Positions 2,834-58,310 of a DNA stretch of 64,000 nucleotides are shown one piece after another. Location: assembly GCA_963748295.1 (NCBI GenBank), contig CAVVIH010000008.1, positions 123,873-187,872 on the forward strand, read 5' to 3'. Made by a program: the position numbers and the translations under genes. Under the pieces are notes generated by a model. It saw only the letters and a program-made list of their open reading frames with translations, did not search any database and had not been told where the DNA came from. Position 1 is the first letter of the stretch; every line of letters starts with the position of its first letter. The stretch is from an uncultured Acidobacteriota bacterium (lineage in GTDB: Bacteria > Acidobacteriota > Vicinamibacteria > Vicinamibacterales > 2-12-FULL-66-21).

Positions 2834-2882
2834 GAGCTGAGAGCTGAAGGCTAGAGGCTGATAGCTGATAGCTGATAGCTGA
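2834..2882. repeat. Seven tandem degenerate heptamers ((T/G)AGCTGA)
   Basis: gagctga gagctga aggctag aggctga tagctga tagctga tagctga. Confidence 0.9.
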
Positions 2883-2907
2883 AACCTGCCGGCTGTAGAC
2901 TACCGCA

Positions 2908-3886
2908 ATGCTTTTTCTCACCGAAGCCGACGTCCGCGTCCTGCTGCCGATGCAGGACCTGATTGACTCGATGCAGAGCGCGCTCGCTGCCTACTCGAAC
3001 GGGCAGGTGCAACAGCCGCTGCGAACGGTGCTGCAGGTCGGCGCCGGCCATGCGTTCTTCGGCCTGATGCCGGCGTTCATTCCGCAGTCGGGCGCGCTCG
3101 GGACGAAGCTCGTCACCGTGTTCGGCGGCAACGCGGCGCTCGGCCTTCCCACGCATCTTGCGACGATCATCATGCTGGACCCGCAGACCGGAGCGGTTCG
3201 CGCAATCATGGACGGGCGTTACATCACCGAGGCGAGGACCGCCGCGGTGTCCGCGGTGTCGGTGCGGCTTCTTGCGCGCGAGGATGCGTCCACGCTGGCG
3301 ATCATCGGCTCCGGCGTCCAGGCGCACAGCCACCTCGAGGCAATCTCGCTCGTCCGTCCTCTGAAAGAAGTGCGCGTCTGGAGTCCGACACTCGATCGCC
3401 GTCAGCGATTCGCCGCCGATGCGCGCGGGCTCGTGGGCGCAACCGTGACGGCGGTCGCCGACGCCAGGACGGCGGTCGCCGACGCGGACCTGATCGTGCT
3501 CGCCACCGCGTCACGTGAGCCGGTCGTCCGCAGCGAGTGGGTGGCCGACGGTGCGCACATCTGCGCGGTCGGCGCATGCCGTCCCGATCAGCGTGAGATG
3601 ACCACCGATCTCGTCCAGCGCGGAAGGCTGTTCGTGGACTCGCGGACAGGTGCGCTGGCGGAGGCGGGCGATATCGTGATCCCGATCAAGGAAGGCGCTG
3701 TCGACGACAGCCACATCGCCGGAGAGCTCGGCGAGCTCGCGGCCGGCCGTATCGGCGGTCGATTCGAAACCGTCCGACGTGACCATCTTCAAGTCGCTCG
3801 GGATGGCGGTTGAAGACGTCGCCGCGGCGCATCAGGCGTTCGAACGCGCCGCTGAGCGGGGCCTCGGACGGGCGGTGGTCGTCTAG
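2908..3886 (+). CDS. Ornithine cyclodeaminase/mu-crystallin family protein (frameshift near 3770)
   Basis: RTAAVSAV, IIGSGVQA, VGACRP. The shifted frame gives the conserved VTIFKSLGMAVEDVAAA C-terminus, ending at TAG 3884-3886. Confidence 0.88.
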
Positions 3887-4165
3887 GCTTTCGCCTTGCG
3901 CCGTTCGGCCCAGCGCTTCTTCATCATCTCGGAAATACGCTTGCGCGCCTCCGGCGACATCCGGCGCCGCTTGCGCTTGCGCCCTGCCCCGGCCTGAGGA
4001 CCCGACGCCGATCCTCGCGCGAAGCCTCGCGGCCTGTTCGTTCAGCGTCGTCAAACGCTGTCTCGTCGCCGCGATCTCGCGCTCCAGCCCACCCAGCGCC
4101 CAGCCGATGAACTCCGCAGATTTCATCAGCATGTTGTCTTTCTTCCGTGGCCTTCCGCGCGGCAT
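3883..4165 (-). CDS. Small basic coiled-coil protein, putative nucleoid/DNA-binding (frameshift near 3985)
   Basis: MPRGRPRKK N-terminus and a coiled coil. The shifted frame gives GRKRKRRRMSPEARKRISEMMKKRWAERRKAKA*. GAGGAGG SD upstream. Confidence 0.7.
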
Positions 4166-4200
4166 CGCCTACCTCCTCAAAGGCCTTTATCATAGTCTTG

Positions 4201-5406
4201 ATGCCCCGGGAGCTCGGCGGATTCATCGTCGCGGTCCTCGCCGCGCTCATGGCCTGTCCGGTCGCGGCCTCGGCGCAGCCTGAAACGGCCGAAACGCTGC
4301 GCGCACGCGCGGCCGACCTCGCCTACAGCCACGAGCACGAGAAAGCCGCCGATCTGCTCCGCAAGGCCGTCGCGCTTGCACCCGACGACCCCGCGACGCA
4401 CAGGAACCTGGCGAGCGTGCTGTGGCTGCAGATGCTGTTCAAGCGCGGGGCGGTCACCGTCGATCACTATCTGGGATCTTTTTCGCGCGCGCGCGTGGAC
4501 ATGCAGAAACCTCCCGCGGATCTCGATGCCGAGTTCCGCAAGCATCTGACGCGCGCCATCGAGCTGGCGGAAGCCCGGGTCAAAGCGAACCCGCGCGATC
4601 CGCAGGCCAATTACGATTTGGGGGCCGCGGTCGGCCTCCGGGCGTCATACATAGCAACGGTCGAGGGGCGCCTTCTCGCTGGCTTCAACGCCGCACGCCA
4701 CGCCTACGATCTCCACGAAAAGGTCCTCGAGCTCGACCCGAAGCGCAAGGACGCCGGCATGATCGTCGGCACCTACCGCTACATCGTGTCGACGCTGTCG
4801 CTGCCGATGCGGATGATGGCCTACGTCGCCGGGTTCGGCGGCGGAAAAGACAAGGGCATCCGGATGATTGAGGAGACCGCCACCGCCGGCGCCGAGAACC
4901 GAACCGATGCGTTCTTCGCGCTCGTCCTCGTGTACAACCGGGAAAAGCGTTATGAGGACGCCATGCGGGTGATGAAGGAACTGCGAACGCTGCATCCACG
5001 TAACCGGCTTGTACTGCTGGAGGCGGGCTCGACCGCTGTCCGGGCTGGACGTTTCGACGAGGCGGTTACGCTCCTCAGCAACGGCATGCGCATGATCCCG
5101 GCGGACGAATCGCGGCGAATTCCGGGCGAAGAGGCGCTCTGGCGCTACAAGCGCGGCGCCGCCTATGCCGGGCTGCAGCGGCAGAACGAGGCGGTTGCCG
5201 ACCTGACCGCGGCGGCAAGCCCGTCGGCGCAGTCCTGGGTTCACGGCCGCGCGCGCGTGGAGCTCGCCCGCCTGGCGCTGACCCGCGGCGACCGCGGGAC
5301 CGCGTCGCAGGAGGCGCGCCAGGGCCAGAACCTCTGTCAGCAGGGCAACGATCCGGTGTGCGTGGAGCAGGCGAAGAAGCTTTTGAGGGACGCGGATGGC
5401 CGGTAA
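4201..5406 (+). CDS. Secreted tetratricopeptide repeat protein
   Basis: Signal-peptide-like N-terminus and TPR-like helices (KAVALAPDDPATH, KVLELDPKRKDA). Confidence 0.8.
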   Translation: MPRELGGFIVAVLAALMACPVAASAQPETAETLRARAADLAYSHEHEKAADLLRKAVALAPDDPATHRNLASVLWLQMLFKRGAVTVDHYLGSFSRARVDMQKPPADLDAEFRKHLTRAIELAEARVKANPRDPQANYDLGAAVGLRASYIATVEGRLLAGFNAARHAYDLHEKVLELDPKRKDAGMIVGTYRYIVSTLSLPMRMMAYVAGFGGGKDKGIRMIEETATAGAENRTDAFFALVLVYNREKRYEDAMRVMKELRTLHPRNRLVLLEAGSTAVRAGRFDEAVTLLSNGMRMIPADESRRIPGEEALWRYKRGAAYAGLQRQNEAVADLTAAASPSAQSWVHGRARVELARLALTRGDRGTASQEARQGQNLCQQGNDPVCVEQAKKLLRDADGR

Positions 5407-5902
5407 GTTCAAGACGTGGGTCTGGGTCGTCGTCGGCGTCATCGTCGCCGGGATTCTGGGCATCGTCGCGATCGCGGCGGCGAGCATCTACTACGTCTCG
5501 CGTCACGTCGACACGCGGGAAGTGTCTCCCGCGATGGCGTCGCGCGAGTTCGACGAAGTGCGCGCCCGCTTCGCGTCGCAGAAGCCGCTCATCGAGCTCG
5601 ACGAGCGGGGCGATCTCGTCAGGACGAACCCTGATCGGCCCGCGCAGAAAAACCCGAAGTCCCCTGAGCAGATCCACGTCCTCGCCTTCGATTCGCGCGA
5701 AGGACGCATGGTGCGCGTCACTATTCCGTTCTGGCTGCTGCGGCTGAAAGTCGGCGGCACGACAATCGATCTGAACCGCGGCGGCAAAATGGACCTCGAG
5801 GATTTGAAGTTGTCGGTCGAAGACCTCGAGCGCTTCGGGCCGACGCTGATCGTCGATCACAGTTCGCGCGACGGAGAGCGTGTCCTCGTCTGGTCGCAGT
5901 AA
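5396..5902 (+). CDS. Hypothetical single-pass membrane protein
   Basis: N-terminal TM helix; overlaps the upstream gene; normal composition. Confidence 0.75.
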   Translation: MAGKFKTWVWVVVGVIVAGILGIVAIAAASIYYVSRHVDTREVSPAMASREFDEVRARFASQKPLIELDERGDLVRTNPDRPAQKNPKSPEQIHVLAFDSREGRMVRVTIPFWLLRLKVGGTTIDLNRGGKMDLEDLKLSVEDLERFGPTLIVDHSSRDGERVLVWSQ

Positions 5903-5969
5903 CTGTCCCCTTCCAGCGACCCTCTCGTAAAACTGCCAGGGTTTTCGCCGCTTTTCGACTGTTTTCGAC

Positions 5970-5984
5970 AGGCGCGCTTTTTGC
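5970..5984 (+). promoter_or_regulatory. Candidate sigma-54 (-24/-12) promoter
   Basis: AGGCGCGCTTTTTGC gives GG-N10-GC with TTGC, about 35 nt upstream of the ATG at 6020. Confidence 0.4.
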
Positions 5985-6019
5985 CATTTCTCCCTCCAGA
6001 CGAGTTTCGGAGGGTGCCC

Positions 6020-6698
6020 ATGTTGAACATGAAACGATATCTGCTGGTTCCTGCTGTGAGCCTCTTCGCGCTGGCGTTCGCCGCGCCGGCAAGCGCGCAG
6101 TTCGGCCGGCCGTCGGATCGAAATGGTTATTACCGGGCGGGCCCCGCGTACGACAACGGCTTCCGCGAGGGCATCAAGGAAGGCGAGAAGGACGCGCGCA
6201 GCCGCGACCCGTTCGAGTTCAGAGATGAGGGCGACTGGCGCGACGGCGACCGCGGCTATCATCGCCAGTTCGGCGATCGCAACACGTATCGGCGCGTCTT
6301 CCGCGACGGCTTCGAAGCGGGCTACGCGGATGGCTATCGCCGCTCGGCGCGAAACAACGGCTGGGGCCGCGGTGGAAACGCGTATCCGAACTATCCGAGC
6401 GTACCCGAACCGTGCGCCTGGAGGCTACGGATATCCAGGCGACAACCGCAATCCGAACAGCGGCCGCTACGGCTACAACCCGGCGTATGACGCCGGCGTA
6501 CGCGACGGTTACGAGAAGGGGCGAGAGGACTCACGCGATCGTGATTCCTACGACCCGCTGCGCCACAGCTGGTACCGCTCGGGCGATCGGGACTACAGGG
6601 GCGAATACGGCTCGCGCGAGCAGTACCGCGACCTGTATCGCCAGGCGTTCAGGGAAGGATACGACCGCGGGTATCGCGAGGCCGGCTACTACCGCTAA
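6020..6698 (+). CDS. Secreted Gly/Tyr/Arg-rich two-repeat protein (frameshift near 6400)
   Basis: Signal peptide (ALAFAAPASAQ). Two homologous halves: AYDNGFREGIKEGEKD...YRRVFRDGFEAGY and AYDAGVRDGYEKGRED...YRQAFREGYDRGY. Confidence 0.75.
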
Positions 6699-8165
6699 TC
6701 CAGCCGGAGGAACTTCTTCATCCGCGTCAGGAACGTCGCCGGGGCATCGGCCACGGCGACGGTCTTGAGCGTCTCGCGAATCTGATTCAACTCGGCGCGG
6801 CGAGTGACTGCCGCAAGGCCGACTCTCTCCAGCGCCGCGGGATCTGCCGCGCCGAGGGCACGAAACACTTCCGCATCGAGCTCGAGAACGACTGCGTCTC
6901 CGCGCGCGACGACGCTCGCCGTCCGTGGCTCTCCAGTCAGCAGCGACATCTCGCCGAAATAGCCCCCGCGGGGAATCCGCGCGACTTCGCGGTGCTCGGG
7001 CTCGAGCTGCACCGATACCTCACCCGAACAGACGATGAACATCGAGCGTCCCGGCGCGCCCTGACGTACGACCGCCTCGCCGTTGCCGAACATCCGCGTG
7101 GTCGTCGCCGACGCAATGCTGCGCCGCTGCCCTTCCGTGAGCTGTGAGAACAAATCGACGCCGCCGACGATGCGTTCGCGTTCCGTCTGCTTCGCGGCCG
7201 CATCCGGTTCCGGCCACTCGCGGCTGTATCCAACCTCGATCGGCCAGGGGATCTCGATGCCGCGCCGCCCGAACGCGTAGAAAATTGCCGTGCGCACCTC
7301 GTCGCGTGCTTCGTCGTCGAACTCGTAGTCCTCGATCCAGAAGCGGATACGGTAGGTGACCGCGGACGCGTCGAACGCGTGCAGCAGCGCGTCGGGTGCC
7401 GGCGCCTTGAGTACTCGCGACACCTGGTCCATCGCTTCCATCACCGCCGCCTTCACGTCACCGGGCGTGCTCAGGTAACTGGCGCCGACGTCGAGCTCCA
7501 GACGCGTTGGCACCGCCGGCTCGGAGAAGTTCACGATCGCGTGCTTGGAAATCTCGTTGTTGGGAACGACGACGAAGTTGCCCGTCTTGGTGCGCAGCTT
7601 CGTCGCCCGCCAGGTGACTTCGGCGACACGCCCTTCGAACTCGCCGACACGGATCCAGTTGCCGATCTTGAACGGCTTCTCGCTCTGGATCGCGAGCCCG
7701 GCGAAGGCGTTGCCGAGCGTGTCCTGGAGCGCGAAGCCGACGACGACCGCGCCCACCGCGGAGGTGGTGAGCAGCTTGTCTTCGAAGACGAACGTCGCCA
7801 CGAGCAGGAGGACGCCGATGACGATCGCGTCCTGGAGGATCGAGGGAAACGCGTCAGGAACGCGATCCGCCCGAAGCGGATTGATCAGCGAAACGACCAG
7901 CAGATTGATCAGCGCGGCCGCGAACGCGAGCTGCTCGAACGAGCGGAGCTGAAGGTCACACCGCGCTGCCGTGTCCGAATGACGGCACGCCGGGCACCGT
8001 CCCCTGGACGGTGACGACGATGTTCGCGAGAACGTAAGCGCCGAACAGGAAATAGGAGAGCTTGAGCTTCCGCTTGATCAGCCGGTTGGCGGTGAAACTG
8101 GAAAGGACCGCCGTCGCAGCGAGCGCCGCGATGCCGACGACGAGATGCCCCGGGTAGTGATTCAT
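6695..8165 (-). CDS. MscS-family channel with C-terminal cyclic-nucleotide-binding domain (frameshift near 7950-8000)
   Basis: GFALQDTLGNAFAGL, KPFKIGNWIRVG and VVVPNN (MscS); FGEMSLLTGEPRTASV (cNMP cassette). The N-terminal TM part is in ORF 7956..8228, starting at MNHYPGH. Confidence 0.88.
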
Positions 8166-8166
8166 C

Positions 8167-8195
8167 AAAAAAAGAGCCTCGCAGTGCGAGGCTCT
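8167..8195 (-). terminator. Palindromic hairpin with U-tract directly upstream of the mscS start
   Basis: Minus strand AGAGCCTCGCACTGCGAGGCTC TTTTTTT G ATG. Confidence 0.7.
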
Positions 8196-8237
8196 CAGAT
8201 GAGAATTTGCGGCGATTCTAGCACGCATCCCGCGTGT

Positions 8238-8672
8238 TCAGCGTTCAGCGCTTCCCTTCTTCAGCAGCTTCACGGCGCGGTCGCGATCGGTCACGCTGTC
8301 GAAGCCGTACACGGCCGAGAACTTCGTTCCAACGACCTGCGCGACGAGAAACGCGAGGTTGATGCCTGCGTCGGCGATCGCGCGCGCCGTCCGATAGCCG
8401 AGTCCAGCCCGGTTGGACCCCTGAACCATTACGGCGGGAATGTCGCTGGCCGGCGTCAGTCCGGCATCCGCGGCCGCGGCGGCCGCTTTCTTGCCGGAGA
8501 TGGGAAACAACTCGACGGCGCCTCTGCTCTCGTCGCCCGGGAATCGGTACGCCATCAGCACCTGCAAGTCCGCCTTGGTCGTCGCAAGCGGGTGGAGAAC
8601 GCCGGCCAGCGCGCCTGGCCGATTCTCGATTTCCCGCCGCCAGAGTGTGATCACCTTAACGGTCAGGGCCAT
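8238..8672 (-). CDS. ACT-domain protein
   Basis: Two ACT-like repeats: IENRPGALAGVL and SNRAGLGYRTARAIADAGINL. Confidence 0.8.
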   Translation of the reverse strand: MALTVKVITLWRREIENRPGALAGVLHPLATTKADLQVLMAYRFPGDESRGAVELFPISGKKAAAAAADAGLTPASDIPAVMVQGSNRAGLGYRTARAIADAGINLAFLVAQVVGTKFSAVYGFDSVTDRDRAVKLLKKGSAER

Positions 8673-8696
8673 GACGCTGTCTCCTTTCAGCCCGCG

Positions 8697-11168
8697 TCAT
8701 TGCTGCGACAGCGCGACCAGCGGGCTGACCCGCGAGGCGCGCCTCGCAGGCCCGAGGCAGGCAACGAGAGAAACGAATCCGAGGACCGCGACCGCGGTCA
8801 GCATCACCATCGGGTCGAGCGCGCCGACGCCGTACAACTGAGAAGCGATCGCGCCACGCAGCGCGAGAGCGCCGGCGATGCCGGCGGCAATCCCGCACGT
8901 CGTCAGCAGCGCCCCCTCGTTCAGGACGAGTCGAAGGATGCCGCGCGCATCGCTGCCGAGCGCCAGCCGGATGCCGATCTCGCGGGTTCGCTGGCTGACA
9001 TGATAGGCGAGCACGCCATAGAGGCCGATCGACGCCAGCAGCAAGGCCATCAAGCCGAACGCTGCCGAGAGAATCATCGGCGCGCGCCGCGGGTTGAGAG
9101 ACTTCTCGACCCGCTCGGACATCGAGAATACGTCGAAGGCCTGCATTTCGGGATCGATTTCGGCGAGCGCACGCTGGACGGCCGCCGTGGTCGCGGCCAT
9201 GTCCGCGCGGCTTCGCACCGCGAAGCCGATGCCTCGCTCCGGGTCCTGGAAGAATGGCAGATAGTACGCGCCCGCGCGAGCCTGCTCGCCTTCGACGAGG
9301 CCCTTCAGCTTCACGTTCGCCACCACGCCTATCACCTGAAGCCACTTGACGGTCGGTCCGGGCTTCACGATGTCTTCTGGTCGATCGGGCAAATACAGCC
9401 GCCGGCCGATCGGATCGTCACCGGGCCAGAACAGCGCGGCGAGCTGCTCGTCAACTAGGACGACTCCTGGTGCGTCCGGCCCGTCGGCATCGGTGAACAA
9501 TCGCCCGCGCTTCAACGCCACTTTCATGGCTTCCAGATATCCCGGCGTCACATAGAGCTGGTTCGGCGACACGACCGACGCGCCGGGGTCCATCGAGCGG
9601 CCCTCGGGAATGATCACGCTGCTGTTGCCGTCCCAGCTGAAGGGCAGATAGCTGCTGGCGCCGGCCGCCTCGACGCCTGGAAGCGCACGAATCCGCTCGA
9701 GTGCCCGGTTCACGTAAGACCTGAGCGCGGCGTCATCGGGATAGCGCGTTTCGAGAGGGCTCACGCGTCCGGTCAGCACACCCTCCGCGACGAACCCGGG
9801 ATTGACGCGAAGCAGCCGCTCGAAGCTCGCGAGCAGCAGCCCGGCGCCCACCAGCAGCACGAACGCCAGCGCAACCTGCGACACCACGAGCCCGCGCCGG
9901 ATGAGTCGCGTGCCGCGCCCTACCGTGCCGCTGCGGCCTTCCTCGCGAAGCATGTTGCTCAAGCTGACGCGCGCGAGCTGCACCGCCGGTGCGGCGCCGA
10001 TAACCAATCCGAGCAGCACCGCCAGGCCGACCGTGAACGCGAAGATCGTGTTGTCCATCCGAATCTCGTGCGCACGCGGCAAATCGGTCAACCGCAGCCA
10101 CTCGAGCGCGCCGAGACTCCAGTAGCCGACGAGCAGGCCCAGCGCTCCGCCGATCACCGTCAGCAGCGTCGCCTCGGTCACGAGTTGGAAGGCGATCCGC
10201 CCGCGCCCGGCGCCAATCGCGCTTCGCGTCGCCAGCTCCTTCATCCGGGCGCTGCCGCGCACCAGTGAAAGATTCGCGATGTTGACGGCGGCAATCAGGA
10301 CGACGAAGAGCACGCCGCCGAGCAACAGCTGCAACGCCGCGCGGACGTTACGCACCAGATCGGCCTCGAACCCGGCCATCCTGGTCGTGTATCCCGCTTT
10401 AATGAGCGGCGCCTTGAGCGGACCAGCCCGCTCGACGAACTGCGCGTTGAGCGCGTCGACCTGTGCCTGCGCCTGCTCCATCGTTACGCCTGGCGCGAGC
10501 CGTGCGATCTGCTCGTGATTCTGACTGTATCGCCGCTCTTCCGCGCGGTCCTCGTCGCTGAAGGCAAGCGGAACGAAAAGGCGAACGTCGGGATTCAGGA
10601 ACGAAAACGATGGTGGAAGCACGCCGACGACGTCATACACTTCGTCGTCGAGCCGCAGCTGACGCCCGACGATTCCGGCGGCGCCACCCGGTTGCTTCGC
10701 CGCAAGGATGTGACTCAGCACGACGACCTTGTTGCGCCCTGGCGTCCCCTCGTCTTCGCGGAAGAGGCGGCCGGTCGCTGGTTCGGTCCGGAGCACTTTG
10801 AAAAACGAAGGGGTCACGGTCATCGCCGACACGCCCTCCGCCGCCGTCCCCTGGCCAACTCGAAACCCCGCGTTTTGATAGAGCGCAACCTCTTCGAATA
10901 CGTTCGCCAGCGCGCGCCGGTCGAAGTAGTTGGGCACCGAGGTGCCGGCGCGCTCCACGCCTGCGCCAGGGAACGAGTCGTACGAAGTCAGCAGGCGGTG
11001 CGAGTCGGGATACGGGAGCGGGCGGAACAGGACAGAACGCACGACCGTGGCAATGGCGGCGTTGGCGCCCAGGCACACCGCAAGAGTGAGGATGACCGTG
11101 AAGGAGTAGGCGCGGTCCTTGCGCAACATGCGCCACGCGAAGGCGAGATCCTGGCGGATGGCGTCCAT
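8697..11168 (-). CDS. MacB/FtsX-type ABC permease (acidobacterial duplicated orphan permease, ADOP)
   Basis: QDLAFAWRMLRK...ILTLAVCLGANAAI; duplicated permease halves; QRTREIGIRLALG; ARRASRVSPLVAL end; no adjacent ATPase. Confidence 0.92.
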   Translation of the reverse strand: MDAIRQDLAFAWRMLRKDRAYSFTVILTLAVCLGANAAIATVVRSVLFRPLPYPDSHRLLTSYDSFPGAGVERAGTSVPNYFDRRALANVFEEVALYQNAGFRVGQGTAAEGVSAMTVTPSFFKVLRTEPATGRLFREDEGTPGRNKVVVLSHILAAKQPGGAAGIVGRQLRLDDEVYDVVGVLPPSFSFLNPDVRLFVPLAFSDEDRAEERRYSQNHEQIARLAPGVTMEQAQAQVDALNAQFVERAGPLKAPLIKAGYTTRMAGFEADLVRNVRAALQLLLGGVLFVVLIAAVNIANLSLVRGSARMKELATRSAIGAGRGRIAFQLVTEATLLTVIGGALGLLVGYWSLGALEWLRLTDLPRAHEIRMDNTIFAFTVGLAVLLGLVIGAAPAVQLARVSLSNMLREEGRSGTVGRGTRLIRRGLVVSQVALAFVLLVGAGLLLASFERLLRVNPGFVAEGVLTGRVSPLETRYPDDAALRSYVNRALERIRALPGVEAAGASSYLPFSWDGNSSVIIPEGRSMDPGASVVSPNQLYVTPGYLEAMKVALKRGRLFTDADGPDAPGVVLVDEQLAALFWPGDDPIGRRLYLPDRPEDIVKPGPTVKWLQVIGVVANVKLKGLVEGEQARAGAYYLPFFQDPERGIGFAVRSRADMAATTAAVQRALAEIDPEMQAFDVFSMSERVEKSLNPRRAPMILSAAFGLMALLLASIGLYGVLAYHVSQRTREIGIRLALGSDARGILRLVLNEGALLTTCGIAAGIAGALALRGAIASQLYGVGALDPMVMLTAVAVLGFVSLVACLGPARRASRVSPLVALSQQ

Positions 11169-11236
11169 GCTGGAACCTTACGGGCGGACGGTGTCGCCGG
11201 TTCGACGAACGGCCCGCGACGGCAGAGACAGTAATA

Positions 11237-13960
11237 CTACGGTTTCAGGAGGCGTGGCCAGTTGAGTATCACGCTCAACGGCGTGGAAAGGTTCTCCTCG
11301 ATCAACTTGTTCACCAGGATGTGCTGCCCATCCGGCGCCATGTTGTACGGGTAGGCGTCGAGCCTGATCCGCGTTCGCAGGCGCGTCTTGAACAACGGGT
11401 GGATATCACCGACCGCCAACTCGTCTCCGTTGATGCGGACCTGCGCGGCCATGAAGGTCTCGTCCGGCGCGACGAACACGATTTCTGCATTGTCGCGCCG
11501 CCAGTGCGGCCAGCTGCCGCCGTTCGCTGAAACCTGGCGCGGCTCGCCGGCGCGGCCGTGCGGCTTGACGTACACCTCCAGGCGGCCGGACACGTTCGCG
11601 GCGTATGCGATCCATCGACCATCGCCGGAGAAACGTGCCTGTGTTTCGACCAGCGACGTGTCGACGAAGGCCCGCGCAGCCCCGCCGCGAGCCGGCAGCA
11701 GCATGATGTCGCTCCGCGCAATGGTTCGGCCGCCGGCGATGAACAGGACCGACTCGCCGTCAGGCGACCAGTCGGCCGCGAACTTCCCGAGCGCAAGGCC
11801 CTCATCTGCTATCCGCCGCTCGGGTCCGGTTGTCTGGGACTTCTCATACAGGTCTACACGGCCTTCGCGGAACGAGCTGAAGATGAGCCGTCTGCCGTCC
11901 GGGCCCCAGACGGGTGCGAAGTCGTCGGTCGGGCCCCACGTGAAACGTTCGCCAATACCGCGCTTGACGTCGAAGGTCCAGATATCGCGCGTGCCGAGTA
12001 CCGGATCCGCCCTGCTCGATGCCGCCCGGGTTCCGTCGGGCGAGAGCACGACATCCACCCAGTCGGCCTGTTCACCAAGACGACCGACCTCGGTGCCGCG
12101 CCGATTCGAACCACGCCAGCTGAGAACCCACGGCGGCCGTCGTCTGGTAGACGAGCACGTCGTTCGACACGCTGTACGCGCCTCCGATGCCCCCGCCGGA
12201 GGCACTCGTGAGCACGCGTTCCATGATCGGCACCGGCGTGCCTTCGAGCGCCAGCCGGGTTGCGTCGAACGGCTGTGCGAGGAGAGTTCCGCTCCGGACG
12301 AAGAGCAGGCGGCCGCCGGCATACGCCGGCTGCGACGCGTTCTCGACCAGAAGCTTCGCGAACGATGGCTCTCCGAGTCGCCCGATGTAGATACCGGTCG
12401 GCGTCGTCGCGCCCCCCTGCAGGCTGCCGACCGCGGCATAGAGAAAGTGGCGGCCATCCGGGAGAAACGAGGGTTGCGCGTGCTGCACGTGGCCCGCGGC
12501 GGTGTCGAGCGTCGTGGCGGCTGTGGAATCCCCGCCGGACGAACTCGATACCTGGTGAAGGGGCGCGTTGCCGGCCGGCGTGAACAGGATGACGCCCTCG
12601 TGATTCCAGGCGCTCAGGCTGCTGAAGCGCAGGTCGGCCAGCGTGACCGGTGCGCCGCCGTCGAGCGATACCCGCTTCAGCTGGCCGCTCAGGACCGAAA
12701 TCTCCGCTGTCGGCCGCCAGATGAATCCGAGCTGGCGCGAATCCGGGGACCAGAATGGATAAGTGCCTCCTTCTGTCCCGGCGATTGGCTGTGCGACGGG
12801 CGTATCCAGCGGTCGAACCCACAGCATCGTCCCGCCGCCGGGCGCGTTTCCGACGTACGCGATGCGCCGGCCGTCGGGAGACACCGCGAAGCGCGTCACC
12901 TGTTCCGGAGCGGCAGCGGTCGCGAGGTTCGGCAATGGAATCGCGGCGCTCACGACACGTTCGTCCGCGGCACTCGTGTCCGGCGCCTCCCGCCGCCAGT
13001 AAAGGATGCCGAGCGTCAGGAACAGGACGCCGGCAGCCGTCCACGCGGCCGCCTCTCGCATCCTGGACCACCGCATCGAAGCGGCCGCTGCTGCCGGCAT
13101 CGCACCGGAATCGGTGCCGGCGGTGAGCGCCTCGTCCAGCTCGATGCGTGCGTCGGCAATGTCGTGCAGCCGGCGCCGCGCATCCTTCTCGAGACACCTG
13201 CGCAGCAGCCACCGCACGCGCTCGGGTGTCTGGCTGGGAAGAAGCGTCCAGTCCGGTTCGCTCCCGAGGATCGCAACACGGTGTCGGAGAGAGTGGACCG
13301 GGCAAACGGGTTGCGCGCCGTCAGCATCTCGTAGAAGACGCATCCGAACGAGAAGATGTCGGTGCGCTTGTCGAGCGGCTGGCCGCGCGCCTGTTCCGGG
13401 CTCATATAAGCAACGGTGCCCAGGACAACTCCGCTCTTCGTCGCGTCCGCCGCGACCGTCGCCGCATTGCCCTCGGCGACCAGCGCTTTCGCCAGGCCGA
13501 AGTCGAGCACCTTCGAATGGCCCTCGGCGGTGAAGGCGATGTTGGCAGGCTTCAGATCGCGATGGATGATGCCGCGATCGTGCGCAGCCTGCAGGGCGTC
13601 GGCGATCTGCCGCGCGATCGTCAACGCGTCACGAACGGCGAGCGGACCGGATGCCAGACGAGTGGCGAGCGTGCCTCCCTCGACCAGCTCCATGACGAGG
13701 AACTGGGAATCGTCTGCTTCTTCCAGACCATAGAGCGTTGCGATGTGTGGATGGGTCAGGCCCGCGAGGATCTGCGCCTCGCGGCGGAACCTCGAGATGC
13801 GTTCGGGATCGGCAACCGCAGCCGCGGGGAGCGCCTTGACGGCAACGTCGCGTCCGAGGCGCGTGTCGCGCGCGCGATACACCTCGCCCATCCCGCCCGC
13901 GCCAAGCGGCGCGACGATGTCGTACGGACCGAGGCGATGTCCGGATGGCAGCGCCGTCAC
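11237..13960 (-). CDS. Ser/Thr kinase with TM helix and TolB/WD40-like beta-propeller (frameshifts near 13275 and 12110)
   Basis: LGAGGMGEVYRARDTRLGRDVAVK, HRDLKPAN, DFGLAK, YMSPEQARG. Many SPDG/WSPD propeller repeats; ends VILNWPRLLKP. Confidence 0.9.
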
Positions 13961-14048
13961 TTCCTCGCCAGCGCTGCGTTCGGCATGCCAGCCATCACTT
14001 TCATGGCGTGGATGATACCCGAGCGTTGCACGCCGGCGCGAAGCGTGG

Positions 14049-14585
14049 CTACTTCAGCACGATCCGCTGCGTCACCTTCCCGTCCTCGATCGGGCGCTCG
14101 GAGAACGCCGGGTTGCCGCGCATCTCCGAAGTGATGAAGGGATCTCCCGTGAAGACGATCTCGAAGATGTGTGGCGCCCGTCCGGCCGCGCTGACCTCGA
14201 AGTGAATGTGCGCCGGCACGCGGCTCTGCGGATATGAGCCCGGCTTGATTGTGTCGAACGAGTACGCGCCCTTCGCATCGGTCCGCAGGAACAGCTTCAG
14301 CCGCGGATTGCGATTGTCGCTCGCCGGCTTCACGCTGTAATAGCCCTCGTGATCGGTCTGATAGACGTAGAGGGACGCGCCAGCGACTGGCGCGTTGTCC
14401 GGACCTACCACGACGCCGCTGACGTGGAGCGGCTGGCCAGGCTCGCCCGCCGGCGCCAGGCGGCCGGCCGACGGCGCGCCGGCAGGTGCTTCGTGGACGG
14501 CCTGACGTGCGGCCGCCGCGCCTGACAGCAGAACGACGACCACGATCGAGATCCAGGGCAAGCTGCGAACACGTGTGATGAACAT
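14049..14585 (-). CDS. Secreted intradiol ring-cleavage dioxygenase-like protein
   Basis: GEPGQPLHVSGVV, YQTDHEGYYS, TDAKGAYSFDTIKPGSYP, PAHIHFEV; N-terminal hydrophobic signal. Confidence 0.75.
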   Translation of the reverse strand: MFITRVRSLPWISIVVVVLLSGAAAARQAVHEAPAGAPSAGRLAPAGEPGQPLHVSGVVVGPDNAPVAGASLYVYQTDHEGYYSVKPASDNRNPRLKLFLRTDAKGAYSFDTIKPGSYPQSRVPAHIHFEVSAAGRAPHIFEIVFTGDPFITSEMRGNPAFSERPIEDGKVTQRIVLK

Positions 14586-14677
14586 GCGCATCACTCCCTT
14601 CGGCGTGAATCGTCTCACGACTTCGCCCGGCCGGGCGCCGGCGCGCCATTACTTCGTTGGGGCGAAACGCGGGACCG

Positions 14678-14710
14678 AAAAGAGTAAAGCCTCGCGGTCG
14701 CGAGGCTCTC
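14678..14710 (-). terminator. Hairpin terminator downstream of the DUF4142 gene
   Basis: AGCCTCGCG-GT-CGCGAGGCT (14688-14707), followed on the minus strand by a T-rich tail. Confidence 0.55.
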
Positions 14711-14723
14711 GAGCAGACGTTTG

Positions 14724-15420
14724 TCAGTTGGTCGAACGTTTCTTCGCCGCGTTCTCGAGCGTTCTCGCGGCGTCGAGGTGCTTTTGCGCGACGGGGAACG
14801 TCTCGGCCGCCCACTGATTGATCTTCCGCGTCACGTCGTTGTCGCTCTTGGCGGGACGGACTTCCACATCGGCCATCTGCGTTTTGGGGTCGGGCAGCGC
14901 GTTGCTTTGGGTGCGCCCCGCCGCGGCGGTCTTCCAATCCGCGAGCGACTGGACGTCGAGCCGGGATTCCAGCTTCGCGGCAAGGTCCTGATGGCTCTGC
15001 GACCATTGCCTTCGCATACTCGCGATCGAAATCGGCGCCCTGTTCCTTCGCCAACTCGTCGACGATCTTCTTGTGCTTCTCGTCGAGCTGGGCGGGCCAG
15101 TCAATCGGGACGCCTGAGGCGGCGCTCTTCAGCTTGTTGCCAGCCGCGCCATGCTCGTCGATCATCCTTTGCGCGAACGACTTGATGTCAGGGCTTGTCG
15201 CTTTCTCGAGCGCCATGCGGCTGAGCTCGATCTCCGCCAGGTTCTTGAGCGCGACGTCACGCACGAAGTCGTCGTCGTTCTTCACGTCCGCACCGGCCCC
15301 GCCCGTGCCGACCGCAGCGGGGCGTTCCGCGGGGGCGTCCGAACGGTCGGACTTCGAGCAGCCGCCGATGACGATCATGACGGCAGGGACCGCGACCCAC
15401 AACAGACCAGCACGACTCAT
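14724..15420 (-). CDS. DUF4142 family lipoprotein (frameshift near 15000)
   Basis: Lipobox IGGC; DDDFVRDVALKNLAEIELSRMAL, IKSFAQRMIDEH, GADFDREY, QKHLDAARTL. Confidence 0.8.
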
Positions 15421-15578
15421 CCGACCCTCCTCTGCATCTCGACCTGCCGATCGACGTGCAAGGGGAGTGACGTCAGCCGCTCACCGTTTTGCGGGTCGTG
15501 CGTGACGACCGAGGGAAGTACAGAAGCTTGCTGTCGTGGAGATCACCGGAACATGGCGGGCGAGAATCCGTTCAGAAT

Positions 15579-15890
15579 CTAGAGTTTTACCTCGCTGAGT
15601 TGGATCGTCGGCTGCGTGTTCGTGTAATTAGGGATGTCGCCCACGATCGCCTCTGCGTGCGGACCGAATGCCTGCTGAAACGACTCCACCGTGTCGAACA
15701 GAAGATGGCCCATTGCGACGAATGCGGGCGCTGAGCCAGGCTGAGTGCCACTAAGCCCGCCCTCCACGGCGGTGCCCTTGAGCGCAGTCCCAAGTTTCTG
15801 TTGAACCATAGGAATGTGCTTCCCGAGGTAGTACGTCATGTCAAATCGGCTGCCCGGGCCGTTGGGGTATAGGACGCTTACTTTGATCAT
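15579..15890 (-). CDS. EthD family reductase
   Basis: MIKVSVLYPN...FDMTYYLGKHIPMV...DIPNYTNTQPTIQLSEV; own SD (GGAGG) upstream. Confidence 0.88.
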   Translation of the reverse strand: MIKVSVLYPNGPGSRFDMTYYLGKHIPMVQQKLGTALKGTAVEGGLSGTQPGSAPAFVAMGHLLFDTVESFQQAFGPHAEAIVGDIPNYTNTQPTIQLSEVKL

Positions 15891-15922
15891 TCCCGCCTCC
15901 GTCCGGCATTCTACAGCGCGCC

Positions 15923-16532
15923 CTATTCCCGCGGCCCGGCATGCGGGTCGTACGGTTCGATCTGCGCGGCGCGTGCCCGCCAGGTACTCAGCCTTCAATC
16001 GACTTACCTCCACAGCATTGTGCAGAATCTCGCAGTCGCAGTAGCCGCCTCGAGCCATGAGGACGTGAAAGACATCGAAGTACTCTTCCTCGCGGAATCC
16101 TCGAGCTGACAGGACAGCTCGTGCATGCCGGTAGTCACCGTGACACTGCTGTCGAGGATGCGACGCATCTGGAGGGCAGAGGATGTCATCCAGCGCTCCG
16201 AACACGCCCGCCCCGTGCAGGCAACGCATGACATCCGGGCTGATCTCGTCAATCAGCTCGGCATCCGGATACTCCAGATCTTCCGGACGCTCGCCCGGGG
16301 CGAGCTCGAACCACTCCGTTTCAATCAAGTGGCGTTCGTAGTAGTCGGCGGGAATGAGATTCCGGATGTAGTGGTAGCGCTGCGCCGGGTAAAGAGCCGC
16401 GAACTGCGCCTCCGTGAAATACACCGCCGGGCGCGTGGGATCGTCCGTCCACGGTTCCACGCGAATCTCCATATTCGGATAGGCTCGACGCAAGAACTCA
16501 CGGAGGTCGGTTTCAAGCTGATGTAGATTCAT
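15923..16532 (-). CDS. DUF2695-domain protein (apparent frameshift near 15983)
   Basis: GGYCDCEILHN motif. Removing one base gives AEYWRARAAQIEPYDPHAGPRE*. Confidence 0.65.
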
Positions 16533-16559
16533 ATGTCACCGTCGTTCAGCGTTCAACAT

Positions 16560-17381
16560 ATGACGAAGCTGAGGTTTCAGCAGCACGCGATGGCGGCAGC
16601 ATTTGTTGTTTTCTGCGTTGCGGTCATCGCGCTCGCGTCCGCTCCGCTGCTGCTGCCCAAGCCGACAGCGCGCGAGATCCGGCAGCAGTTGTGGGCGGAG
16701 CTCCAACCGGTCCGGCTCGCAAATTGCGAGATGCGGCGTTTCGGCAGTCCCAATGACGGCGGCTATCTGATGTGTGGGAATCTCCTCGGCGCGGTCCAAG
16801 CCGCGTACTGGTACGGCATTGGTCCGTTCGACGATTGGGGCTGCGACGTGTCCCAGAATCTTGGTGTCACCGTTCACCAATACGACTGCTTCATGCCGCC
16901 GCCCTCACCGTGTCCGAGCGCTGTGTTCCACAATGAGTGCATCGGTCCCAAAACGGCCGTCATCGAATCGCGGGTCTTCGATTCGCTCACCAGGCAGATG
17001 TCAAAGAACGGCGATGCTGGCAAAACATTCGTCGTCAAAATCGACATAGAGGGTGCGGAGCTTGATTCGCTGCTGGCCACACCGGACAGCGTGCTGCAGC
17101 GTATCGACCAGCTCGCGATGGAGATTCACGGTGCAGACAAGCGCTTCCTGCGAATGGTCCGGAAGCTAAAACGGACGTTTCACCCGGTCCACATCCATTT
17201 CAACAATCAGGCGTGCACCGTACGATACAAGCCGTTCCCTGCTTCGGCCTACCAGGTCCTTTTCGTCAACAAGCAAATCGCCGTCGTCGATCCGCACCAG
17301 CGGCGTCCCACCTTGCCGCACCCGCTGGATGCTCCCGACTACTCGCTCGGGCGCGACTGTCAAACACCGCTCGAGCCGTAG
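16560..17381 (+). CDS. FkbM-like methyltransferase (Methyltransf_22 type) with N-terminal anchor
   Basis: RFGSPNDGGYLMC, YGIG, VKIDIEGAE, QLAMEIHG, HIHFNN. Confidence 0.8.
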   Translation: MTKLRFQQHAMAAAFVVFCVAVIALASAPLLLPKPTAREIRQQLWAELQPVRLANCEMRRFGSPNDGGYLMCGNLLGAVQAAYWYGIGPFDDWGCDVSQNLGVTVHQYDCFMPPPSPCPSAVFHNECIGPKTAVIESRVFDSLTRQMSKNGDAGKTFVVKIDIEGAELDSLLATPDSVLQRIDQLAMEIHGADKRFLRMVRKLKRTFHPVHIHFNNQACTVRYKPFPASAYQVLFVNKQIAVVDPHQRRPTLPHPLDAPDYSLGRDCQTPLEP

Positions 17382-17391
17382 ATCGAAATCG

Positions 17392-17423
17392 CAAAAACAA
17401 AGAGCCTCGCACTGCGAGGCTCT
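17392..17423 (-). terminator. tRNA-Glu intrinsic terminator
   Basis: Minus strand AGAGCCTCGCAGTGCGAGGCTC TTTGTTTTT, 20 nt after CCA. Confidence 0.8.
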
Positions 17424-17443
17424 GGAAACGAATCTATGATGAA

Positions 17444-17518
17444 TGGTACCGGTACGGGGATTCGAACCCCGGTCCCGTGGCTGAGAACCACGTGTCCTGA
17501 CCCCTAGACGATACCGGC
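17444..17518 (-). tRNA. tRNA-Glu (anticodon CTC)
   Basis: GCCGGTA/TACCGGT acceptor stem, anticodon arm CGTGG-TTCTCAG-CCACG, GGTTCGAATCC T-arm, encoded CCA. Confidence 0.97.
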
Positions 17519-17536
17519 CCCGGACCAGAAACTCCG

Positions 17537-17566
17537 ATTTTAGCAACTGGCGCGGAGCCCGGTCAA
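17537..17566 (-). promoter_or_regulatory. sigma70-type promoter of tRNA-Glu
   Basis: TTGACC-N18-TAAAAT on the minus strand. Confidence 0.6.
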
Positions 17567-17567
17567 G

Positions 17568-17853
17568 GACGCCGATTGCCGCGGATCAACAAACGGGACG
17601 CGGATTCTCAAGATCTTCGATGCAAACGGGGACGCGGATTGACGCGGATCAACACACGAAACGCGGATTGACACGGATCTCCTAATCAACCTCGACGGAT
17701 CAACGGGGGATCTCACGCTCATGACTGAGCCGTGATACCGCGAGAATCCGCGTCCGCTAAAGAAAAAAGAAATCCGCGTCGATCCGCGTTCCGTGAATGG
17801 TTTGTGACCGCGAAAATCCGCGTCTCGTGATTTAATGGCATGCGATCCGCGTC
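17568..17853. repeat. Inverted array of degenerate decamers (GACGCGGATY / RATCCGCGTC)
   Basis: Left arm copies at 17568, 17578, 17597, 17631, 17641, 17660, 17670. Right arm reverse-complement copies at 17745, 17771, 17781, 17815, 17844. Small central hairpin at 17713-17735. Confidence 0.9.
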
Positions 17854-17865
17854 TATGATCTCTAC

Positions 17866-19239: not shown

Positions 19240-19246
19240 TAACGTT

Positions 19247-20029: not shown

Positions 20030-20037
20030 GGCGACAC

Positions 20038-20932: not shown

Positions 20933-21346
20933 ATGTCCGTCGCCGATCTACCGGCACTGAACGCCACCCTCAACGCCATCGCGGCGGTCCTGCTCGTCAC
21001 CGGCTACGTCCTGATACGCCGCGGACGCATCCGGCAGCATCGGCGCGTGATGCTGGCGGCGTTCACGACCTCCGCGCTGTTCCTGGTGTCCTACGTCACC
21101 TACCACGCCAACGCCGGATCACGGCCGTTCGCCGGACAGGGACCGATCCGGATCGTGTACTTCGGCATCCTGATCAGCCACGTGATCCTCGCCGCCGCCA
21201 TTCTGCCGCTGGCGCTGATCACGTTGACGCACGGCCTGCGCGAGCGCTTCGACCGGCACGTGCCGATCGCGCGGTGGACGCTGCCGATCTGGCTGTATGT
21301 GTCGGTGACGGGCGTGGTGGTTTATTGGATGCTGTATCAGCTGTGA
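20933..21346 (+). CDS. DUF420 membrane protein (CtaM/YozB-like)
   Basis: LPALNATLN, HRRVML, SALFLVSYVTYH, IWLYVSVTGVVVY. Confidence 0.9.
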   Translation: MSVADLPALNATLNAIAAVLLVTGYVLIRRGRIRQHRRVMLAAFTTSALFLVSYVTYHANAGSRPFAGQGPIRIVYFGILISHVILAAAILPLALITLTHGLRERFDRHVPIARWTLPIWLYVSVTGVVVYWMLYQL

Positions 21347-21364
21347 GCTGATAGCTGATAGCTA
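21338..21364. repeat. Short (T/G)AGCTGA heptamer run
   Basis: cagctgt gagctga tagctga tagcta, between convergent genes. Confidence 0.7.
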
Positions 21365-34212: not shown

Positions 34213-34246
34213 ATCCCGGGCCCCGGCCCCTTGCCCCAGGCCCCGT
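34213..34246. repeat. Short GCCCCNN heptamer-like run
   Basis: atcccgg gccccg gcccctt gccccag gccccgt. Confidence 0.55.
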
Positions 34247-47782: not shown

Positions 47783-47799
47783 GCTCCGCGGCGCGGGGC
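47783..47799 (+). promoter_or_regulatory. Candidate bacterial SECIS hairpin
   Basis: GCTCCGC-GGC-GCGGGGC, starting 11 nt after the TGA, with G in the apical loop. Confidence 0.6.
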
Positions 47800-47800
47800 G

Positions 47801-47858
47801 AAACAACTCCCAACTCCCCACGAAACAACTCCCAACTCCCAAAAAGACCAACTCCCAA
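47801..47858. repeat. CAACTCC heptamer array
   Basis: aaa caactcc caactcc cca cgaaa caactcc caactcc caaaaagac caactcc caa. Confidence 0.85.
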
Positions 47859-56426: not shown

Positions 56427-56959
56427 TCGGTCTCGGGCAGACCGGCGCGATGGTTTGCCGCGCGCGCCATGACGAAGAGGAGATCCGACAGCCGGTTCAG
56501 GTACACCAGAACCTCCGGATCGACGGCGTCGGGGCCAAGCCCTACGACCGCGCGCTCGGCGCGGCGGCAAACCGCGCGCGCGACGTGCAGCGACGCGCCG
56601 GACGATCCTCCGCCGGCCAGGATGAAGTGACGGAGCGGCGGCAGCTCCGCTTCGAGTTGATCGATCCACTCCTCGAGACGCGTCACGTCCGCCTGGCCGA
56701 CCGTTGCCTTTGCCACGCGCTCCGCGATCCGGCGCGCAGGGTCCGCGAGGCGCGCACCGACTGCAAACAGATCGCGCTGGATCCGCTCGATCATCGACGA
56801 CAGCTGCGCATCCGACGTCGCGGCCCGCGTGAGCCCGAGCCAGGCGTTCAGCTCGTCCACCTCGCCGTAGGCGTCGACGCGCGCCGCCGCCTTCGATACA
56901 CGCTCGCCGCCGAACAGGCTCGTGTCGCCCGTGTCGCCGGTCCTGGTGTAGATTTTCAC
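56420..56959 (-). CDS. PduO-type cob(I)alamin adenosyltransferase
   Basis: KIYTRTGDTGDT, YGEVDELN, RRAER, YLNRLSDLLF. Confidence 0.93.
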   Translation of the reverse strand: MKIYTRTGDTGDTSLFGGERVSKAAARVDAYGEVDELNAWLGLTRAATSDAQLSSMIERIQRDLFAVGARLADPARRIAERVAKATVGQADVTRLEEWIDQLEAELPPLRHFILAGGGSSGASLHVARAVCRRAERAVVGLGPDAVDPEVLVYLNRLSDLLFVMARAANHRAGLPETEW

Positions 56960-57021
56960 AGGATGATTATAGGCACGTTCCCCAGACCAGCCGTCCGCCG
57001 CCGCAAGGGGACAGGCTCCAG

Positions 57022-57747
57022 GTGACGCGTTCTTCAAAAGCAAAAACCCGCGCCGCATCGCCGGTGTCGCTGCCGGCCGCCGGAAACCGTCAGCGCTTCC
57101 GGAAGCGGCTCCTCGAGTGGTATCGCGAAAACGGCCGCGATCTCCCGTGGCGCCGCACGACCGATCCGTATCACATCCTCGTCTCCGAAGTGATGCTGCA
57201 GCAGACCCAGGTCGATCGCGTGCTGCCGAAGTACGACGAGTGGCTGCGCAAGTATCCGTCGCTCGAGGTGCTCGCCGCGGCGGAAGAAGGCGACGTGTCC
57301 GAGACATGGCGGCCGCTCGGCTACAACATCCGTCCGCGCAGGCTCCACGCCATCGCGCGCGAATCGGTCGCCCGTTATGGCGGCGCGCTGCCGTCCGACG
57401 AGGAAACGCTGCGCTCGTTCAAGGGGATCGGCGCCTACACCGCAGGCGCGGTCCTCAGCTTCGCATTCCGTCAACGCGCCGCGATTCTCGACACCAACGT
57501 GGCCCGCGTGCTGTTCAGGATCTTCATCGGCCGCGGCAACCCGCGATCGCACGCGATGCGCCGTCATCTCTGGGAACTCTCGCGATCGGTTCTTCCGGTT
57601 CAGCGCAACGTCTTCGACTTCAATCAGGCGCTGATGGATTTCGGCGCGACGCTTTGCGTCGCCAGAAAGCCGAAGTGCCTGGTGTGCCCGATGAAACGCA
57701 GCTGCGCCGCCTATCCATTCAACCCGGAGAACGAAAGAGCCGAGTGA
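57022..57747 (+). CDS. mutY: A/G-specific adenine glycosylase, lacking the C-terminal domain
   Basis: RDLPWRR, SEVMLQQTQV, GIGAYTA, LDTNVARV, and a four-Cys Fe-S motif. Confidence 0.9.
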   Translation: MTRSSKAKTRAASPVSLPAAGNRQRFRKRLLEWYRENGRDLPWRRTTDPYHILVSEVMLQQTQVDRVLPKYDEWLRKYPSLEVLAAAEEGDVSETWRPLGYNIRPRRLHAIARESVARYGGALPSDEETLRSFKGIGAYTAGAVLSFAFRQRAAILDTNVARVLFRIFIGRGNPRSHAMRRHLWELSRSVLPVQRNVFDFNQALMDFGATLCVARKPKCLVCPMKRSCAAYPFNPENERAE

Positions 57748-58146
57748 GGTCCGACCTTTCGCGCATCGTCGTCACCGCCGCGGTCATCGAGCGTGGTGGC
57801 GCGTACCTCGTCACGCGCAGGCCCGGCGGCGTTCACCTCGAAGGGTATGGGAGTTCCCGGGCGGCAAGTGCGAGCCTGGCGAGGATCACGAAACGTGCCT
57901 GCGCCGGGAGATCGAGGAGGAACTCGGTGTAGACGTGCGCGTTGGCCGTCAGATCTTCGAAGTCGCGCACGAGTACCCGGACCGCGCCGTCGAACTGCAT
58001 TTCTTCGAGTGCGAGCTTCTTGGCGAGCCGGTTGCGCGGCTCGGGCAGGAGATGAGGTGGGTGGCGCCGGGCGATCTCGCCGCGCTGGAGTTTCCGCCGG
58101 CGGATGCCGAGTTGATCAAACTGCTGGCGCGTGCGGGACGTTTTAA
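57744..58146 (+). CDS. mutT: MutT-like NUDIX hydrolase (frameshift near 57848; end uncertain, 58146 or 58306)
   Basis: WEFPGGKCEPGE...CLRREIEEELG NUDIX box, HEYPDRAVELHFF, FPPAD. Confidence 0.8.
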
Positions 58147-58310
58147 CAGGAGTTCAAGAGTTCAGGAGTTTTTCTTACACGAGATCAAGAGATCAGGAGC
58201 TCTTTTTGCAGGAGATCAAGAGATCAGGAGTTCTGGGTCTAAAGAATATTCTCCTGACCTCTTGATCTCCTGTAAAAAACGTCTCCTTATCTCAAGGATC
58301 TCCTGATCTC
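58147..58310. repeat. Octamer-triplet modules with inverted arm
   Basis: CAGGAGAT-CAAGAGAT-CAGGAG type modules at 58147, 58178 and 58209 (31-bp period); inverted copy at 58251-58272 and a degenerate one at 58283-58310. Confidence 0.9.

Follow-up and report, generated by a model that had tools for sequence, protein, structure and literature searches.

Gene-less 7- to 10-nt repeat arrays of an Acidobacteriota genome share their words with inverted arms around small four-helix-bundle and GxxExxY genes

Six arrays of degenerate 7-, 8- and 10-nt units occur in a 64,000-nt stretch of DNA from an uncultured Acidobacteriota bacterium (herein the window; G000:C8:123873-187872, where G000 is the source genome assembly: 5.9 Mb, 66% GC, 86% complete). 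At five of the six loci the repeated unit, or word, recurs elsewhere in the same genome as inverted arms around a small gene encoding either a four-helix-bundle protein (TIGR02436) or a GxxExxY protein (TIGR04256). The gene-bearing form (herein the cassette) consists of one such gene between two inverted arrays of its own word. We propose that the six arrays are gene-less, non-autonomous members of word-specific families, spread in trans at the DNA level by proteins that would recognize the word, a reading that we regard as evenly poised between right and wrong. A first-pass annotation of the window had stated that similar arrays flank genes of these two kinds in other bacteria and had suggested non-autonomous copies acted on in trans; the stated link holds inside G000 and, for the 8-nt word, in relatives, and the suggestion is supported.

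Repeat Arrays in the Window

All six arrays described in the first-pass annotation are present and above chance:

2834..2882, minus strand: single-armed array of the 7-nt CAGCT(A/C/G/T)T family (A7); seven degenerate GCTGA(T/G)A units running up to the ATG of a minus-strand proline-racemase gene
17568..17704, plus strand: left arm of an element of the 10-nt ACGCGGATT family (D10); doublets in ~29-nt modules, upstream of a minus-strand tRNA gene (17447-17518)
17738..17853, minus strand: right, inverted arm of the D10 element; 34- to 36-nt modules
21335..21363, plus strand: short A7 array of three units; one coding word, the overlapped TGA stop of a DUF420 gene, then opposite-orientation units
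34213..34245, plus strand: degenerate, single-armed array of the GGGGCCR family (B7); four degenerate NGGCCCC units between thiolase and acyl-CoA dehydrogenase genes
47799..47858, plus strand: single-armed array of the CAACTCC family (C7); doublets and A-rich spacers between convergent glutaredoxin-like and thioesterase genes
58141..58232, plus strand: left arm of an element built on the 8-nt word GAGATCAG (family E8); triplets and T-rich spacers make up three modules of 31 nt
58250..58311, minus strand: right arm of the E8 element, inverted; the GxxExxY clade that goes with this word was found in relatives (L288, L290) and not in the G000 assembly

The architecture that the first-pass annotation described is borne out. 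Units are grouped as doublets at 17568 and 47801 and as triplets at 58147, and the two largest elements (17568 and 58141) are two-armed, with modules of 29 to 36 nt and 31 nt, respectively, and an inverted second arm; the other four loci are single-armed. Both two-armed elements have strong predicted folds (17568-17853, z = -6.2, with equally stable shuffles in 0/100; 58141-58311, z = -7.0, 0/200). The 34213 array is the weakest of the six; its pattern, four GCCCC at 6- to 7-nt spacing, occurs 10 times in the genome and not at all in 5 shuffles. The right arm of D10 ends flush with a TATGAT hexamer (17854-17859), a likely -10 box 6 nt ahead of the ATG of an M23-peptidase gene.

That all six arrays lie between genes holds in general but is conditional for one of them. 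A NUDIX-like gene at 57793-58306 is split over two frames, and the C-terminal, NUDIX-matching frame (57935-58306) stays open across the entire E8 element. Judged from the sequence, the split is likely a one-base (homopolymer) indel near a TAA at 58144-58146, and the intergenic status of the 58147 locus depends on that indel; the right arm of E8 also overlaps the last codons of a minus-strand gene ending at 58292. The window contains no four-helix-bundle or GxxExxY gene, as had been stated, and an Rfam scan of it returned tRNA only, with no other RNA family at gathering score. One doublet of the GTGC(T/G)AC word (family I7) that the first-pass annotation had not included sits in a divergent gap at 28079-28089 and is, taken alone, near chance level. 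An assembly artefact was considered as the source of the arrays and discarded, since contigs that were assembled independently (L166, L170) also contain the 17568 element and dozens of genomes contain the words.

Small Genes Bracketed by the Same Words

Profile searches of G000 gave three PF05635 and four PF13366 matches, all seven of which lie between inverted word arms, at sites between protein genes and not in rRNA. The word of the 2834 and 21338 arrays (A7) brackets the four-helix-bundle gene at G000:C6:120588, that of 34213 (B7) the one at G000:C8:704837 and that of 47801 (C7) the one at G000:C2:476093; the word of 17568 (D10) brackets the GxxExxY gene at G000:C4:512226. For the word of 58147 (E8) there is no matching gene in G000 (best 52%), and the word brackets GxxExxY genes in the genomes G151 and G165.

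A 5'-deleted, stop-bearing four-helix-bundle remnant between AATCCCA arms (L342, G000:C7:86994-87119) is a decay intermediate and supplies the matching clade for a further family, H7. For family J7 there is one candidate matching gene (L416); for G7 none could be identified. Some host genes lie between I7 arms, namely ORFs resembling YraN and a thioesterase and, in L508, an ORF for a membrane protein; these we regarded as neighbours by chance. We also considered and rejected the idea that gene-less loci are decayed cassettes: that remnant and one stop-bearing duplicate are the only such cases found among ~700 loci, and with a single gene remnant among so many, most arrays are not decayed cassettes.

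Word Families across the Genome

Tandem Repeats Finder (TRF) detected 580 arrays of period 7, 64 of period 8 and 72 of period 10 in G000. A census with 11 word patterns, drawn from the TRF output and the cassettes, located 717 loci over 11 families (6 to 172 per family), compared with 0 to 20 per family in three codon-block shuffles. By the gene calls made in this analysis (5002 genes), 637 of the 717 loci are intergenic, and arrays occupy 547 of the 3183 intergenic gaps of at least 30 nt. They sit closer to stop codons than to start codons: the median distances are 18 and 64 nt, and 39% and 10% of the arrays, respectively, lie at most 10 nt away.

Polarity is fixed. All 171 loci with two arms at most 120 nt apart show a single polarity per family, and in the eight families that were oriented from cassettes or window loci the order is left then right in 157/157 two-arm loci. 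A hairpin forms equally well with the arms in reverse order, so selection for hairpins alone does not predict this. When arm gaps of up to 1200 nt are allowed, seven pairs appear in reverse order; these are probably separate loci flanking a gene. The centres of C7 and A7 elements are mostly unique, with no common core sequence or fixed length. Family F8 is the exception, in that its copies share a nested hairpin: copies of this CACGGAG 8-mer family (e.g., G000:C5:610526, C8:105834 and C2:631163-632100) enclose a structure resembling a repetitive extragenic palindrome (REP), with ~47 blastn hits, and the same hairpin lies inside the gene-bearing F8 cassette. Among the words compared, G runs are found only in C7, H7 and B7 and are absent from A7, D10 and E8.

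Pairing of Words with Protein Clades

Among genes of the class, inverted arms flank 21 of 30 four-helix-bundle genes (19 of period 7, 2 of period 8) and 15 of 30 GxxExxY genes (14 of period 8 to 10, none of period 7), compared with 32 of 300 small host genes, only 3 of which have two or more steps. In an enlarged set, arms are inverted at 111 of 156 genes and in direct orientation at 34. Four-helix-bundle genes have period 7 in 90/111 cases and period 8 in 13, and GxxExxY words have periods of 8, 9 or 10. The first-pass annotation had asked whether each period maps to one protein family; it is the word, and not strictly the period, that determines the match, and the matching unit is a protein clade.

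Word similarity follows protein identity (Mantel r = 0.37 over 111 labelled rows; maximum of 2000 permutations, 0.08). On trees, where 38 of 81 rows are unlabelled, words go with clades: the CGGAT-10 word is present in 5/5 members of a clade with support 99 and the CAGAT-9 word in 7/12 members of a clade with support 98 (one other label, four unlabelled); GAGATCA-8 is found by strict label in 4 rows, and by eye in more, of a 10-row clade with support 87. Relatives of the C7 protein at 60% identity or more carry CCAA(C/A)TC-type words in 9/9 cases, and those at 33 to 42% identity carry CAACTCC in 0/14. The D10 word occurs in both arms and in the correct polarity at 26/31 close and 4/34 distant relatives of its protein; these counts include the row L397, moved into the close group by identity, and without the move they are 25/30 and 5/35. 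The D10 relatives span Acidobacteriota, Planctomycetota, Gemmatimonadota, Gammaproteobacteria and others, and the word is kept across phyla at 40 to 56% protein identity. The ratio of nonsynonymous to synonymous substitution rates is at most 0.27 in 34 of 35 computable cassette-gene pairs (0.74 in the other), showing at the sequence level that the cassette genes are under purifying selection. Ten further pairs are saturated at synonymous sites, so the words persist while neutral sites turn over.

Arrays and genes also co-occur. Of 60 genomes of the family, 15 have E8 arrays, and 10 of these 15 encode a protein of the E8 clade (at least 63% identity to the query; 9/14 when the query's own genome is left out), compared with 1 of the 45 genomes without the arrays. 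For C7 arrays and the C7 clade (at least 62%), the counts are 8 of 23 genomes with arrays and 1 of 37 without.

Turnover of Arrays at Orthologous Junctions

The 17568 element is kept in both near strains, which differ from the window by whole modules: L166 shows gains of 29 and 38 nt and L170 a loss of ~130 nt. Where protein identity is 75 to 77%, another 8-nt word occupies this junction, which is empty in most other relatives; in each filled case seen, the array stops at the TATGAT hexamer ahead of the gene. Among 19 rows for the DUF420 stop junction, five relatives carry five other words and most carry none. In 24 relatives the thiolase junction measures anything from an overlap to 277 nt, and a few of them have other arrays there. 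As a separate observation, several relatives (L099, L100, L103 and L104) carry another palindromic insert at the thiolase/acyl-CoA dehydrogenase junction, accompanied in some by a duplicated thiolase 3' end. Contigs from 4 of 24 read runs, compared with window positions 2400-22000, came mostly from other organisms; none of the listed joints spans an array, and one such contig has a longer right arm at 17830. The arrays are multi-copy, strain-variable and tied to gene clades; the pattern of unique, fixed and gene-unlinked arrays, named in the first-pass annotation as contrary to its reading, did not occur.

The arms of a locus pair no better with each other than with arms of other loci (C7 47/94, p = 0.52; A7 10/32; D10 6/11). 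Fold-back copying, or locus-specific tuning of stems, is unsupported by these comparisons and was set aside.

Proteins and Proposed Mechanism

The GxxExxY genes score 95 to 137 bits against TIGR04256 (cut-off 35), and D73, E83, K85 and Q97 are invariant in 28/28 proteins; they are predicted to form a PD-(D/E)xK nuclease family with an intact Cas4/lambda-exonuclease-like site. The structural model is confident (predicted local distance difference test score 94), with Cas4 and lambda exonuclease as the nearest folds. Structures matched by the four-helix bundle, 2GSC and 2RLD, have five chains; the bundle's score of 32 against the Avd model NF033474 is weak and below the cut-off of 80. Genes for sigma-54 and RNase III are present in G000, and searches of the 86% complete assembly gave no match to the reverse transcriptase profile PF00078 or the Y1/RAYT profile PF01797.

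Word, direction and protein clade are conserved, and there is no excess of target duplications, no C7 or A7 core and no preferential own-arm pairing; this combination argues for recognition by protein rather than for stem structure. Word binding, nicking, copying, trans action, mobility and any RNA formation are inferences. In the proposed sequence of events, the ends of genes would expose a single strand, on which the protein would bind the tandem words; a GxxExxY protein might nick or resect at the bound word, and a four-helix bundle may act like its relative Avd and bring in enzymes of the host. The arms would next be copied into a new junction by host repair, leaving the gene behind; slippage could reshape the copied arms, and copies within genes would be purged.

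Several points weigh against spread in trans. Neither binding nor cleavage nor a fresh insertion was observed. The same mechanism has to work for two folds that are unrelated, of which the four-helix bundle has no known catalytic site, and in a Foldseek search with the GxxExxY model nothing reached E 0.001, the best hit being Cas4 SSO0001 at E 0.004. The 86% complete assembly shows no matching gene for E8, G7, I7 or J7, and 5 of 10 genomes with at least 39 C7 hits lack a gene matching the query used. Comparison of empty and filled sites, which had been called for, delivered other lineages with other words or none; an exact empty site in a close strain was not seen, since both near strains keep the 17568 element. 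Target duplications, which had also been sought, are not in excess: C7 shows 4.8% against 4.9% in shuffled pairs, A7 10.7% against 4.1% (shuffle maximum 14.3%) and G7 0/11, in a test weakened by fuzzy element ends. Identity cut-offs were set after the data were seen, kin are not independent, and co-transfer of a gene with its arms also yields some pairing of word with clade.

Alternative Explanations

The arrays might instead be RNA elements whose arms pair to stems, which RNase III would excise from operon transcripts or which would protect 3' ends; the proteins would handle RNA, and gene-less hairpins would be miniature intervening sequences (IVS). The strong predicted stems, the position of arrays nearer to stop codons than to starts and the RNase III gene of G000 all fit, as does the Coxiella IVS, described in the consulted text of PMC4990558 as tandem heptamers in an RNase III-cut stem with an S23p ORF. 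Yet own arms are no more complementary than those of other loci, four of the six window loci have a single arm, hairpin formation leaves the fixed polarity unexplained, and no reverse transcriptase was found in the 86% complete assembly to return RNA to DNA. We consider this account unlikely. Passive microsatellites are a still less probable source: slippage-prone long repeats, with the small genes as passengers that inherit their arms by descent and recognize nothing. Whole-unit and whole-module length changes between strains, arrays without a detected matching gene, and the 29 near-identical four-helix-bundle genes of genome G080 (described below), which adjoin a larger ORF and can therefore travel as passengers, speak for it. 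Slippage does not, however, put one word at 100 or more unlinked junctions in one polarity, nor does it account for words kept across phyla and beside saturated synonymous sites or for the co-occurrence of gene and arrays; moreover, for one heptamer family of G000, 1 of the 30 loci examined (L506, in a relative) has a four-helix-bundle gene between arms of that word.

A third alternative is a host regulon, in which the arrays would be host-useful binding sites of ring-shaped regulators of the TRAP type, induced through sigma-54 under stress and tuning the stability or read-through of many transcripts. A sigma-54-like -24/-12 motif stands at a fixed distance before 40/71 four-helix-bundle and 44/81 GxxExxY genes, compared with 59/600 host genes, and before 43/87 held-out genes; sigma-54 itself is present, the genes are under purifying selection, the homologues 2GSC and 2RLD are five-chained, and the occupancy of intergenic gaps is broad. 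The motif is nevertheless above threshold in 0/7 G000 cassettes and present in only 4/31 close D10 relatives of other phyla; being absent from the former and rare in the latter, it is not a defining part of the system. Junction occupancy and word identity vary between lineages, unlike a conserved regulon, and eleven parallel families in one genome resemble repeated invasion. A regulon seems to us quite improbable, to the same degree as passive microsatellites.

Relation to Known Systems

The 23S rRNA IVS of Coxiella burnetii carries an S23p/PF05635 four-helix-bundle ORF between terminal inverted repeats with tandem heptamers in variable copy number (PMC4990558, as far as its text was available). 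It shares with the present elements the four-helix-bundle ORF, the stem-forming, heptamer-bearing inverted repeats, a sporadic distribution and, in that text, an unexplained mobility. The present elements differ in lying at mRNA gene junctions and not in an rRNA helix, in the many words of one genome, in gene-less copies that outnumber gene-bearing ones ~90:1, and in the use of the same design by the unrelated GxxExxY family. In Xanthomonas, ~185 dispersed intergenic GGGAATC arrays, 70 to 75 of them convergent inverted pairs, lie close to or overlap stop codons and have no link to insertion sequences (Rehm et al. 2015, PMC4692102). The portion of that paper available to us treats the Xanthomonas and Nostoc heptamers as G-quadruplex-forming simple repeats, and its main text does not contain "S23", "xcc0516" or "helix". 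G000 likewise has tandem 7-mers scattered between genes, frequently in convergent pairs close to stops; in contrast to the heptamers as that text presents them, most of the present words would, by sequence, not be expected to form G-quadruplexes, and each word is tied to a protein clade.

The elements also resemble REPs and bacterial interspersed mosaic elements, with their RAYT genes, and also MITEs (miniature inverted-repeat transposable elements). In those systems one autonomous gene is flanked by its own repeats and accompanied by hundreds of gene-less intergenic copies, an organization shared here. No Y1/RAYT gene was found in G000, however, and the bracketed genes are TIGR02436 and TIGR04256; the units are tandem 7- to 10-nt words, not 20- to 40-nt palindromes, and there is neither an excess of target-site duplications nor a common internal sequence and length of the kind that defines insertion sequences and MITEs. 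PF05635 is homologous to Avd, the accessory protein of diversity-generating retroelements, according to the text of PMC10053308 that was available. In contrast to those retroelements, no reverse transcriptase was found in G000 and no template repeat was seen beside the genes. For GxxExxY, the nearest folds, Cas4 and lambda exonuclease, are weak matches (E 0.004 or worse), and no cas gene was seen beside the genes. The elements fail a defining test for each of IVS, insertion sequences or MITEs, REP/RAYT systems and diversity-generating retroelements.

The component parts are already in print, in the Coxiella IVS and the Xanthomonas heptamers. A literature search, with subscription journals mostly outside its reach and supplements not included, found no paper linking dispersed arrays to four-helix-bundle or GxxExxY genes. 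The present analysis adds an assignment of arrays locus by locus within a single genome, tests of co-occurrence and of word sharing across phyla, and negative outcomes for the tuning of stems and for target duplication. More broadly, and with confidence slightly short of even, we suggest a word-to-protein code: an undescribed, transposase-free class of selfish element in which each clade of two huge orphan families would seed, at gene junctions, hundreds of gene-less arrays of its own 7- to 10-nt word, with 23S rRNA intervening sequences and the Xanthomonas and cyanobacterial heptamers as special cases. Two very large function-unknown protein families would gain a specific, testable substrate, and there would be a candidate cause for the surplus of heptamer repeats that has long been noted between bacterial genes. 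G000 is a good test bed, since its 11 coexisting word families provide built-in negative controls for word swaps. If recognition holds, the families would amount to a collection, supplied by nature, of small nucleases and nucleic-acid binders with sequence specificity.

Additional Loci

A GCAG-N-CTGC-like palindrome lies 95 to 155 nt upstream at 27/81 GxxExxY and 11/71 four-helix-bundle loci compared with 16/600 host genes (e.g., L285, L288, L299), the pattern having been drawn from the same loci; it is a possible site for an enhancer protein.

One complete chromosome, G080:C1 (L001, L031-L044), carries at least 29 near-identical four-helix-bundle genes. Those that were read stand head to head with an ORF of ~460 to 490 aa without an NCBIfam match, and the right ends of the copies fall in a CTCTGTG-type 8-mer and palindromic repeats; the unit looks like an unclassified composite insertion element. 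The multiplicity was rejected as evidence of self-mobility: the 15 copies examined share 116 to 470 nt upstream, which in those read is the start of the larger divergent ORF. A second genome, G051 (L045-L050), has ~29 diverged four-helix-bundle genes; ahead of several of them stand 6-nt GTGAAC repeats and a conserved leader, in an arrangement that seems to have a single arm.

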